Source: Candidatus Micrarchaeota archaeon
Lineage (GTDB): Archaea; Micrarchaeota; Micrarchaeia; Anstonellales; Bilamarchaeaceae
DNA: 64,000 bases
Direction: 5' to 3'
NCBI GenBank assembly: GCA_038046765.1
Contig: JBBSVN010000005.1
Location: forward strand, 82,490-146,489
Shown here: in pieces, positions 24,001 to 27,000 of the stretch
Layout of the letters: every line of letters starts with the position of its first letter
How positions within the stretch are numbered: the first letter of the stretch is position 1
Made by a program: the position numbers

Positions 24001-27000
24001 TTCGCTTCGAAGAAACTATTTATTTTGATGGTAAAAAAGCTAAGATTTTGTAAATATTTTTAAGTCGGTTTTACTTAGATATTTAAAATGAATTTACTTA
24101 GTCTTAGTTATGCCTAATTCTTTACATTCTAACCATTCCAGTTCTTCCACTAAAATTGCTTCAAGAACTTATTTTCAGTCTATTGGATATGTCGAACAAC
24201 GCATTACTATTAGTGATAAGTATGGTACCGAAAGAACTCTTTATGGGTGGGTTCCAAAAGGCATAAGCCAAACTGAAGCTATAAAACGAGTAATCGAACA
24301 AAACGGTGGAATGTGCGAAATAAAACGAGGAGGTTATGATCCAATTAATCGAATCGATCTATCTAACTTTACATACATTACCAAAATTGCCTTTGATGAT
24401 GGTTTTACTGTTGCTGACTGGTTACAAATTAGAAATCAATATAATGAATTTGCTATTGGTCAAATAGGTAATACTACTTTCTGGGAAAATGGAGATACTT
24501 TAAGAGCTCATGGAAATAATCAAATTCGTATTACTGAAGATTATGGATTTACAAAAGAATTGCCAGACACATCTGATTTAATCGGCCGTAAAAAAAGAGG
24601 TACATGTGGTGGCTGTGGTGGACCAATTACAAACGAAGCACTTAGCGCATTAGATCTAGCGAGTAAATATGCTCAAAAAAGGGATACTTATAATTTTGAC
24701 CCAAATACTGGCGCAATAAGGCTCGTTAGAAATTCTCAAACATCGGAAAATGAAACTGGTTTTCGCCATATTCTTAACGATTTTTTTAATCAAGTAAAAA
24801 CTTATTTTAACGATACACCTAGTAGCGTTAATTTATCTGCTAGTTCTTACATGATCCAGTTATCGACCAATTCTCAGTTTACCTATCTTGGCGCTGGCGA
24901 TTTTGATTCTTCATCTGCTTTTGCAATAACTCCCCATGCGTCAACTGTTCATAAAAAATTAGCTTCTACTTATTATGCAACTATTAATGGAAATGACACT
25001 TCATCTACTACCTATAACGGCGAAAATACGCTCGCTTCTAACATAGCATTAACTCAAAATACTACTTATAATGAAAAATCAGTTATCTCACCCGTTTCTG
25101 ATAACTCGTTTATCTTTTCTTCATTTGTTTCTAAATGTTCTTGTTGTACAATTAATTTAACTTTAGATTATTTATCTACAAAAACAAAAATTTCTCAAGG
25201 GTTAAATACCGTTGCGGTTTTAGCATCTATTCGTAAAGAAGTTGTAAATTCACCTAAAAACGCATTATCTCAAATTTCCTTAGTTCCGTTGCCAAGAATA
25301 GATTCATTTATTCTATCTAAACCAAATGACCGAGTCTGTAGAGTAAAACCAGTCCTTGTTATTTCTTCTCAAAAAAGAACTGCAAATGATAATTCAACTA
25401 CTTCAAAATCCGCTTCTAAAGAAATTCCAAAGATAAAAACTAAACAAATAGAAAAACCAACAACAAAACCAAAACAAGTTACAAAGGAAACTGCCGTTCA
25501 AATCGTTAAACCGAAACTAATTTCTGTTGATAAATTAAATAAATCTAAAGTACTTGCAGGTAGGAACAAACAAATACCTAGAAAAGTTCTACCTTCAATA
25601 GCATACTTAAAACCCAATAGTAAACTAGTAAAATCAAATTTAAATTCAAATAAGGTGAAACTTGAAAACGAAAATATTCAAAATATTAAAACAAAAGCTA
25701 AGCCTCGAGCGAGCGCTGTAAAACAAAAAATTCCTTCGATTAATTTACAAGAATCAATTCGTGCTACTAGAAAATCTACGCAAGCTAAAGTTTCAAAAAT
25801 TAATATTGCACCAAAGAAAGAATTAGACACAGATATGTTTGCCCCAGTTTTAGCTAAACAAATTGCATCAATGAACAAATCTTATCTAATCAAATGGATC
25901 GCAAACGAACGAAGTAAAAGAAATAAAACTAGCTCTAGACGGAAAGCTGCTTAACTAATATACTAAAATAAAAATATGGCGGGCTCAGAGGGAAATTCCG
26001 AGTTTTGTGTTTTCAGTTTAGCGTCTTGAACGAATAACGAACAAAACGTAAAACACATGACACAGAACTCTTTTGAACCCTCGGCGGACGGATTAAGAGT
26101 CCGTTACTCTACCAAGCTGAGCTATGAGCCCTTTCTAATTCATTGCTAATGTATCGACACTTAGTATATTCATTTACAGGACGCAGTCTTCGACTGCGTC
26201 GGTAGTTTATTCTTTATAAAAACTAAGGCTACAATTAGCATGTTATTAGCATATTCTATCTGTAAACAAGTGTTTTTATTTGCTTGTAAATCAAAAGATA
26301 GTGACCGCAGTCGCTAGATTTTTATTTCTGCCGAAATAAAAAGATCGCGAACGTTTCTTGAGCTAGGCTCAAGAGACAGAACAGGCTTATGCACTTCTTT
26401 GGATTGCACCGCAAGCTAGAGGTCGCAACCTCTGGATTTCTGCTGTTCGCTAGATTTTTATTTGATTGCAAATTAAGAAAAAAAGTTGGAAAGTAAATAA
26501 TCTATAAAACGATTCGTTCTATTGCCGCTTGAACTACTGGATCTTCCCTAAGTTGCTTTTCGGTTTTATTTGCTTGTTCCCTCAATTTACTTAATGTTTC
26601 TTTTAGTAAACGTATTTCCTGAGAATCTACTCCTCGATGTTCTGATATTGCTCTATCCATCTGATAGCAGGAATCTCTAATAGGTCTTCTTGGATTTTCA
26701 AAAAGAATATCTAAACCCTTCATAACTTCGTCAAGACGGGCTAAAATCCTTCGAATACATTCATTTGGATCATTAGCTGCTACATCTCTTAGATCAGAAA
26801 CAAAAAACCTAAAGTTCCCATCTATTACATATTTTCCGTTAAATAGTTCAACATCGCCACGAGGATAGATCGAATTTACTTCAAGTAACCACATTCGATC
26901 CGGCTTTTCACGGAAATAAAACTCGGTCGGTGCATAGGGTTCATAAATCGTTGCTGAAAATATCGCTCCATTGGTTCGAGATTCTTTTAGTTCATATCTC

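Follow-up and report, generated by a model that had tools for sequence, protein, structure and literature searches.

The tRNA genes of this Micrarchaeota genome are interrupted by introns that belong to sequence families spanning tRNA isotypes and intron positions, and the analysis of their sequences supports a bulge-helix-bulge (BHB) type that would be cut by an epsilon2 splicing endonuclease. The evidence further supports a recent copying of sequence between the intron at position 37/38 of tRNA-Arg(CCU) and that at position 59/60 of tRNA-Lys(CUU). Conversion or replacement among members of one intron family is the probable explanation of this pair. The value of the finding lies in the conversion signal and in a candidate donor, and neither in the load of introns nor in a fresh jump. 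For a 2026 preprint, which found no route in Asgard archaea, 'the central open problem' is how intron DNA comes to be in tRNA genes. Within the archaeal family studied here, some genomes have tRNA sets that are largely intact and others have sets that are almost entirely interrupted, all with the same enzyme, and the family offers a measurable conversion signal together with a candidate donor repeat linked to the TIGR02436 family. The link to the repeat is a testable answer to the origin of tRNA introns. If it is true, a transposase-free element would be an identified donor of new archaeal tRNA introns, and TIGR02436 would gain a role.

The tRNA genes were sought with a spliced aligner using 78 reference tRNAs from two genomes of the same family with mostly intact genes, scanning the 587 kb of the 1.5-Mb bin that remain once long ORFs are masked. 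In the whole bin there are 45 tRNA genes at 49–114 bits; the best hit below this set (39 bits) lies inside the 16S gene, and the null from reversed sequence reaches a maximum of 31.7 bits. Thirty-nine of the 45 genes (87%) are interrupted by a total of 67 introns, all of which can be read as BHB introns. Six genes have no intron, 15 have one, 20 have two and four have three. The introns are 15–172 nt in length and none of them contains a gene. They are located in the T-loop (25), at 37/38 (20), in the D-loop (18) and in the anticodon stem (4). Twenty-three of the T-loop introns are at 59/60, while those of Leu(UAG) and Ser(CGA) are best placed at 58/59 and were kept there, where they pair 4/4. 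The second intron of Leu(CAG) (32 nt) was assigned by hand to 37/38. Thirty-nine anticodons are represented by an interrupted copy alone. The genes for Phe, Trp and elongator Met tRNAs were all assigned, and Arg(CCG) is the sole tRNA missing from the spliced census of a bin that is 89.7% complete. The window, i.e. the whole stretch of 64,000 nucleotides that was analysed, contributes eight of the genes and 11 of the introns.

This census agrees with the main counts of the first-pass annotation, which had proposed at least 43 tRNA genes with only six uninterrupted. Its counts from standard tools were reproduced, with 12 genes in the 1.5-Mb bin from ARAGORN -i, and 20 matches to the Rfam tRNA model at E ≤ 10, 10 of which are above the cut-off. 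Such tools overlook around three quarters of the tRNA genes in genomes of this kind (ARAGORN finds 12 of 45); running ARAGORN with a relaxed threshold gave 188 calls that were mostly noise. The pattern of intron sites is as described before, the earlier numbers (about 21 in the T-loop and 14 in the D-loop) being slightly low. The 15 genes with a single intron and about 20 with two are borne out, while genes with three introns number four instead of one or two, and Ser(GCU), to which two introns had been ascribed, has one only.

The further suggestion that this is one of the most intron-laden tRNA sets outside Thermoproteales does not survive comparison with other genomes. All 34 tRNA genes sampled from the five near relatives are interrupted, with 78 introns by automatic parsing that has probably over-split some of them; these genes were picked by a pattern in the 5′ end that is neutral to introns past the first 15 nt, and 30 of the 33 matches were fetched. 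All five relatives are thus more heavily loaded. In Asgard genomes 92–95% of tRNA genes are reported to be interrupted (PMC11291895). The two groups are alike in that nearly all genes are interrupted and many introns are missed by standard tools, and the Asgard value of ~2.2 introns per gene is equalled by the near relatives of this genome. Among its heavily interrupted kin this genome is nothing out of the ordinary, and its load is not exceptional. The number of tRNA genes detectable by Rfam varies from 4 to 45 across the relatives, and the epsilon2 enzyme is present in 20 of 20 relatives searched, whatever their intron load. Since the same enzyme occurs across this range, epsilon2 allows tRNA genes to be interrupted but neither drives the gain of introns nor determines how many there are.

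Removal of the introns leaves tRNAs with at least 18 of 20 stem pairs in 44 of the 45 genes, the exception, Leu(CAG), being a 1-nt register slip of the script. At least three of the four central BHB pairs can form in 40 of the 45 introns at 37/38 and 59/60, whereas 500 shuffles give 7.2 on average and never more than 16. The full four pairs form in 20 of these 45, where the maximum of the null is five. The count of 40 is conservative, because the two 58/59 introns were forced to 59/60. Note that the registers of the D-loop introns were picked by BHB score, and so these are not independent evidence. No Rfam family was found for the introns at 17 loci. In the A1 consensus fold two-sided changes are seen in 10 of 24 pairs, yet the covariation term is unfavourable (+0.52), and for that reason we do not take the fold to prove a structured RNA.

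Among the proteins of the genome is an epsilon2 endonuclease, a full-length three-unit protein, residues 4–392 of which align to that of Ca. Micrarchaeum acidiphilum ARMAN-2 (4FZ2) with E 2e-129. The triad Y236, H251 and K282 of the ARMAN-2 enzyme, its R275 and W384, and K161, the lysine of its specificity loop (ASL), as identified in PMC3488258, are all kept in that alignment. The ligase RtcB is also encoded. In working tRNA genes the introns would fold as BHBs, to be excised by the epsilon2 enzyme, which is of broad specificity, and the exons rejoined by RtcB; the genes and motifs are present, and splicing is the likely outcome. Cleavage of relaxed BHBs in vitro has been demonstrated for the ARMAN-2 enzyme only. 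In the one RNA run, comprising contigs only, a single contig of depth 2 spans an intron in unspliced form and there are zero spliced joints. According to the portions of PMC3239211 and PMC3488258 cited here, ARMAN-2 resembles this genome in its epsilon2 type with conserved catalytic residues, its introns at 59/60, its relaxed BHBs and its tRNA-Ile(UAU). It differs in that 56% of its tRNA genes are interrupted, as against 87% here, and intron families are absent from its description in the cited portion of PMC3239211; the same source reports that as many as 87% are interrupted in archaea whose enzyme is of the (alpha-beta)2 type.

The families were defined by identity between introns in different genes. 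Of the 67 introns, 26 are at least 70% identical to an intron of a different gene, compared with 0–4 in five shuffled sets, which upholds the earlier statement that sequence families are common to unrelated tRNAs. Stricter thresholds retain six introns (≥80%) and four (≥90%). Scaling identity by the length of the shorter intron gave no information, as shuffles equalled the real scores. Between genes the identities are 96% for Lys and Arg, 88% for Leu and Ser, and 74% for a D-loop intron of Ser and a T-loop intron of Thr; the families cross positions and reach the class II tRNAs (Leu and Ser). An example of a mosaic lies within the window. tRNA-Ser(CGA) (2764–2954, plus strand) has introns at 37/38 (2803–2855) and 58/59 (2887–2939), and the 3′ 35 nt of the latter are 94% identical to the intron of Leu(UAG) while the 5′ parts are unrelated.

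Having passed the BHB sequence tests, the introns appear to work like the transposed families of Thermoproteales. For that order, transposition of introns, a load up to 87% and a mechanism assumed to be at the DNA level have been described (Fujishima et al. 2010, as presented in PMC4090602, PMC4390854 and the Asgard preprint). In both cases tRNAs that are not related carry related introns, and these occupy canonical as well as non-canonical sites. The present genome belongs to another lineage with another enzyme, and 6/67 of its introns are in families of ≥80% identity compared with 28% there, the methods being different. In addition, shared introns are found here in class II tRNAs, for which none were known according to the consulted part of a 2015 review (PMC4390854). 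Two things here go beyond what these sources describe for Thermoproteales: repeats outside tRNA genes that are a candidate source, and concerted evolution that is seen directly. The contrast with Asgard archaea, for which the cited text gives almost no copying (1.5% in families of ≥80%) and no route of arrival, is that both copying and a repeat source are visible here.

The evidence of concerted evolution comes from G005 and G097, two relatives belonging to one genus that both have a T-arm intron in Arg(CCU) and in Arg(UCU). Within a species the two introns match at 34/35 (G005) or 38/39 (G097) positions, i.e. the paralogs are 97% identical. Across the two species all four pairs match at 30/39, i.e. 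the orthologs are 77% identical. At the level of sequence this is concerted evolution among occupied sites. This case has long exon homology, which is not present in the Arg/Lys pair. Searches of titles and abstracts, mostly non-subscription and exclusive of supplements, gave no match on conversion of tRNA introns. Titles and abstracts likewise gave no match for tRNA introns of Micrarchaeota or DPANN; intron tables in supplements, which lie outside that search, may hold similar cases.

tRNA-Lys(CUU) is encoded on the minus strand at 25980–26131 and has one T-loop intron, of 78 nt, at 59/60 (25994–26071). Its spliced form makes 7, 3, 5 and 5 pairs in the four stems tested. From 5′ to 3′ the intron comprises a T-rich arm of four heptamers, a spacer, an A-rich arm of four heptamers and the splice-helix strand. 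tRNA-Arg(CCU) lies on the plus strand at 3010–3163, with a G32 that is common to its relatives, and has an intron, again of 78 nt, at 37/38 (3050–3127). Nucleotides 1–73 of the two introns are identical, and they differ only in three of the last five. The longest exact match is 74 nt (3049–3122 on the plus strand, corresponding to 26072–25999 on the minus strand), and consists of one exon A followed by intron nucleotides 1–73. The 74-nt identity noted in the first-pass annotation is therefore real, but it does not extend over the full 78-nt introns. Location of all three differences in the last five of 78 nt has a probability of 1.3e-4 for random placement. Those five nucleotides face the loop of the host tRNA.

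In run X2, a possible source sample, the 74-mer assembles as a separate unitig of depth 16.6 between unitigs of 9.3 and 12.6 (contigs of that run), as expected of a true two-copy repeat and not of a misassembly. It is very improbable that the introns are artefacts, whether of misassembly or as pseudogenes with random insertions. The genome is a MAG and splicing is predicted, which gives such a view what room it has; however, the double-depth unitig already refutes the assembly version, and sole copies for 39 anticodons with intact stems and BHBs far beyond chance, in a pattern shared by relatives, speak against pseudogenes.

Both sites are commonly occupied in the relatives. An intron at or beside 37/38 of Arg(CCU) is present in 17 of 17 parsed genes (automatic parses read by eye), and in G004 and G025 it is of the twin family; G001, G003, G011, G012 and G029 are without an Arg(CCU) intron at 37/38. 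A T-loop intron in Lys(CUU) is found in five of the five nearest relatives, one being cut by a contig end, and in one of 17 more distant genomes. Another Micrarchaeota genome (L227) has a T-loop intron in Lys(UUU) that matches the Lys(CUU) intron of this genome in length, start and end. We considered the Arg intron as donor, on the basis that G at n–5 pairs with C35 of the Arg tRNA, and dropped this in view of L227, where a different T-loop intron has an end of the Lys type. No genome or strain of the same genus was found with an empty or different allele at either twin site, so that gain and replacement are not separable for this pair. Runs X4, X5 and X10, which cover the stretch only patchily, yielded no intron-less allele, which does not mean that there is none.

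These observations bear on the earlier claim of a transposition to a new position caught fresh, which we do not uphold. One rival reading is a fresh insertion of DNA, in which a 73-nt hairpin mini-element was copied into an empty loop by a dedicated recombinase or the four-helix-bundle system, with the end bases taken from the target or adjusted later. We regard this as a minority possibility, though a substantial one. Members of the twin family sit at five or more kinds of site here and in relatives, so new insertions must have occurred at some time; the Lys(CUU) T-loop intron is missing in 16 of the 17 more distant genomes, and armed cassettes are gained or lost precisely (see below). Occupation of the Lys(CUU) T-loop in all five nearest relatives sampled and of the Arg(CCU) site in all 17 parsed genes is contrary to an empty target. 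Moreover, no duplicated tRNA ends turned up elsewhere in this genome, and its assembly is without a four-helix gene bearing arms of the intron type. The similar intron of L227, the end of the shared tract short of the site-specific splice helix, and the conversion visible in G005 and G097 all count against a fresh transposition.

Copying could alternatively have occurred through RNA, with an excised intron entering another tRNA loop by reverse splicing and a reverse transcript of the product then recombining into the gene. This would account for a jump without exon homology. Positions 37/38 and 59/60 are equivalent in the folds of two 7-nt loops, and the genome has two reverse transcriptase loci. 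Such a route nevertheless predicts a copy of the whole intron, yet the last five nucleotides differ and mosaics exist. Both reverse transcriptases look to be of the DGR type, and both are broken at a (GA)n run. DGR reverse transcriptases mutate adenines. Among the 73 nt of the shared tract, 20 of them A and 26 T, there are zero changes, as against the adenine-specific mutation expected of DGR retrohoming. A DNA-level route is also that assumed in the relevant part of PMC4090602. We consider the RNA route unlikely. Under the preferred reading of conversion or replacement, resident introns would swap sequence as DNA, one tRNA gene converting or recombining with another. The Arg/Lys pair would be a recent event of this kind between family members, each site retaining its own splice-helix end.

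The family of the Arg and Lys introns is built of 7-nt units, four T-rich and then four A-rich, and would form a hairpin whose two inverted arms each consist of four heptamers and enclose no gene. Fourteen of the 56 introns tested are of this heptamer type, each scoring above at least 198 of 200 shuffles, and ~3/4 of the introns are not. The matrix used was trained de novo on periodic arrays at PF05635 loci of other genomes, with tRNAs masked. With it the family is detected outside tRNA genes also; 29 arrays of at least 20 bits are found genome-wide, compared with 0–2 in block shuffles, and five of at least 16 bits lie within 60 nt 3′ of tRNA ends. The reversed genome was tried as a control and rejected, since it gave 33 hits against 29 real ones at ≥20 bits, there being real near-mirror arrays. 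Within the window a free T-rich array with the vocabulary of the intron arms (9076–9119, plus strand) directly follows tRNA-Cys(GCA) (8854–9055, plus strand), a gene that has a 131-nt intron at 37/38 (8890–9020). For three other intron families tested, no clear copy was found outside tRNA genes.

PF05635 and TIGR02436 denote the 23S rRNA intervening-sequence protein, an Avd-like four-helix bundle, whose genes lie between inverted heptamer arms both in this genome and in relatives, in one case behind a tRNA gene. PF05635 occurs in 31 of 99 genomes of the family, and 29 loci were examined, none of them from this genome. A reciprocal matrix, trained on the introns of this genome only, finds an A-rich arm 3′ of six of the 29 four-helix genes compared with none of 160 control ORFs (P 8e-6, kin not being independent); the remaining 23 have no downstream arm above its threshold. 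The same matrix finds a T-rich arm 3′ of seven of 90 tRNA genes of relatives, and 17 of the 134 introns in those genomes score with it. One TIGR02436 gene, in G005, is placed between inverted arms directly 3′ of tRNA-Arg(CCU). On either side of this cassette is a copy of a 38-nt direct repeat, the copies standing 505 nt apart, and the repeat takes in the final 11 nt of the tRNA. The polarity of the cassette, from T-rich arm to A-rich arm, is that of the introns. Its congener G097 has neither cassette nor clear arm behind tRNA-Arg(CCU). The arms at the two four-helix genes of the present genome have another vocabulary, a near mirror of that of the introns, and the assembly holds no four-helix gene with arms of the intron type. 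Unlike these cassettes, the introns have no gene and terminate in a BHB; none was found to enclose a TIGR02436 gene, and they would at most be empty derivatives.

The introns may descend from the arms, which are observed behind tRNA 3′ ends and behind four-helix-bundle genes that are gained and lost beside tRNA genes. Loops of tRNA would be tolerated landing sites for dispersed repeats, because any hairpin that gives a 4-nt partner to a tRNA loop would be removed. By inspection, 4-mers able to pair with the T-loop are frequent in the ends of the arms, and this would explain the preference for 59/60. We tentatively propose that tRNA genes in Micrarchaeota are the target of a transposase-free element whose two inverted arms, each of four heptamers, may or may not enclose a four-helix-bundle gene; its empty hairpin could become an intron when the heptamer end pairs with the T-loop and the epsilon2 enzyme excises it. 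We think this less likely than not. A link between heptamers, four-helix genes and tRNA introns was absent from titles and abstracts, mostly non-subscription and with supplements outside the search. A T-loop junction pattern gave 24 matches in GTDB, of which three are real and all labelled Micrarchaeota, and three in viral contigs, none of which is a tRNA. An exact 29-mer of the intron arm has zero matches in JGI metagenomes, and a looser pattern has five there, two of which are tRNA introns. The proposal is akin to the mobile-element model for Caldiarchaeum outlined in PMC3293823, in that gain of an intron is tied to an element integrating at a tRNA locus. There the element is of 1.8 kb and has a recombinase; here the cassette is of 0.5 kb and has none, and its arms resemble the intron itself.

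The introns might instead be retained by selection as a defence, breaking the integration sites of viruses and plasmids, as in the hypothesis of Randau and Soll summarised in PMC4090602. T-loop and anticodon-loop introns disrupt the 3′ half of the gene, which serves as attB for archaeal viruses (same source), and no duplicated tRNA 3′ end turned up in this genome. Against this, 18 introns sit in the D-loop, and the G005 cassette follows a tRNA gene with two introns, of which it repeats just the last 11 nt. Furthermore, genomes of the same family with the same enzyme keep mostly intact tRNAs, and a defensive function gives no origin for the intron sequences. The heaviest load is also on dispensable tRNAs, those with C34; the redundant C34 tRNA has more introns than its U34 partner in nine of 12 pairs and fewer in one (P 0.011, post hoc and in one genome). 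Tolerated passengers fit this distribution better than does defence, which we judge to be improbable, marginally more so than the RNA route. The bias hints that the introns are mildly burdensome passengers and not adaptations.

The spliced census places four further tRNA genes in the window. tRNA-Gly(UCC) (359–451, plus strand) has a 22-nt D-loop intron (378–399), and tRNA-Ala(CGC) (36390–36599, minus strand) a 138-nt intron at 59/60 (36404–36541). tRNA-Gln(CUG) (34265–34386, plus strand) has introns at 15/16 (34280–34308) and 59/60 (34353–34372), the former matching its counterpart in Gln(UUG) at 28 of 29 positions. tRNA-Leu(UAA) (42682–42838, plus strand) has introns at 37/38 (42722–42742) and 59/60 (42775–42824), and the latter is 88% identical to an intron of Ser(GGA).

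An intron-type heptamer array, i.e. one built from 7-nt units like the arms of the tRNA-Arg(CCU) and tRNA-Lys(CUU) bulge-helix-bulge (BHB) introns, is also present in frame within a gene on contig C4 (30381-30446; L223), which on our own reading of its translation appears to be that of a leucyl-tRNA synthetase. A 20-nt hairpin that matches the D-loop intron family of tRNA-His, tRNA-Ser and tRNA-Tyr lies just 3′ of tRNA-Gln(CUG), at window positions 34400-34419. In the relative G005 a nearly identical heptamer arm directly follows each of three tRNA genes that have identical 3′ ends (L256, L260 and L263); in G097, a congener of G005, the orthologs of the two Arg genes among these lack it.

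A second type of four-heptamer array, which nearly mirrors the one in the introns, is scattered over about 25 intergenic sites of the genome under study (e.g. L079:2590-3080 and L080:1890-2390). None was seen in its tRNA introns. Both four-helix-bundle genes of the genome (TIGR02436/PF05635) are flanked on each side by arrays of the mirror type.

We note that tRNA-Arg(CCU) (window 3010-3163) has G at position 32, as is common to many relatives. The genome uses a tRNA-Ile(UAU) (loci examined at L086, L116, L190 and L214), the 37/38 intron of which is kept across genera; a homologue of its long T-loop intron occurs in genome G100.

Three short insertions, each AT-rich and about 40-50 nt long, interrupt the 16S gene, and the 23S gene contains an AT-rich stretch (L219:175-216 and 434-483, near L220:1878-1916 and near L221:3575-3660). 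These are probably rRNA BHB introns.

The genome encodes a second EndA-like protein, of 175 aa (C10; L002:1456-1983), lacking the catalytic histidine on alignment to 1A79. It is possibly a non-catalytic subunit acting alongside epsilon2, the full-length tRNA splicing endonuclease. Weak matches to the epsilon2 query were also obtained in two relatives, G002 and G003.

Two genes for reverse transcriptases like those of DGRs are present on C4 (L077 and L078). Both are split at the same (GA)n run, a possible sign of phase variation, and both are adjoined by putative target genes.
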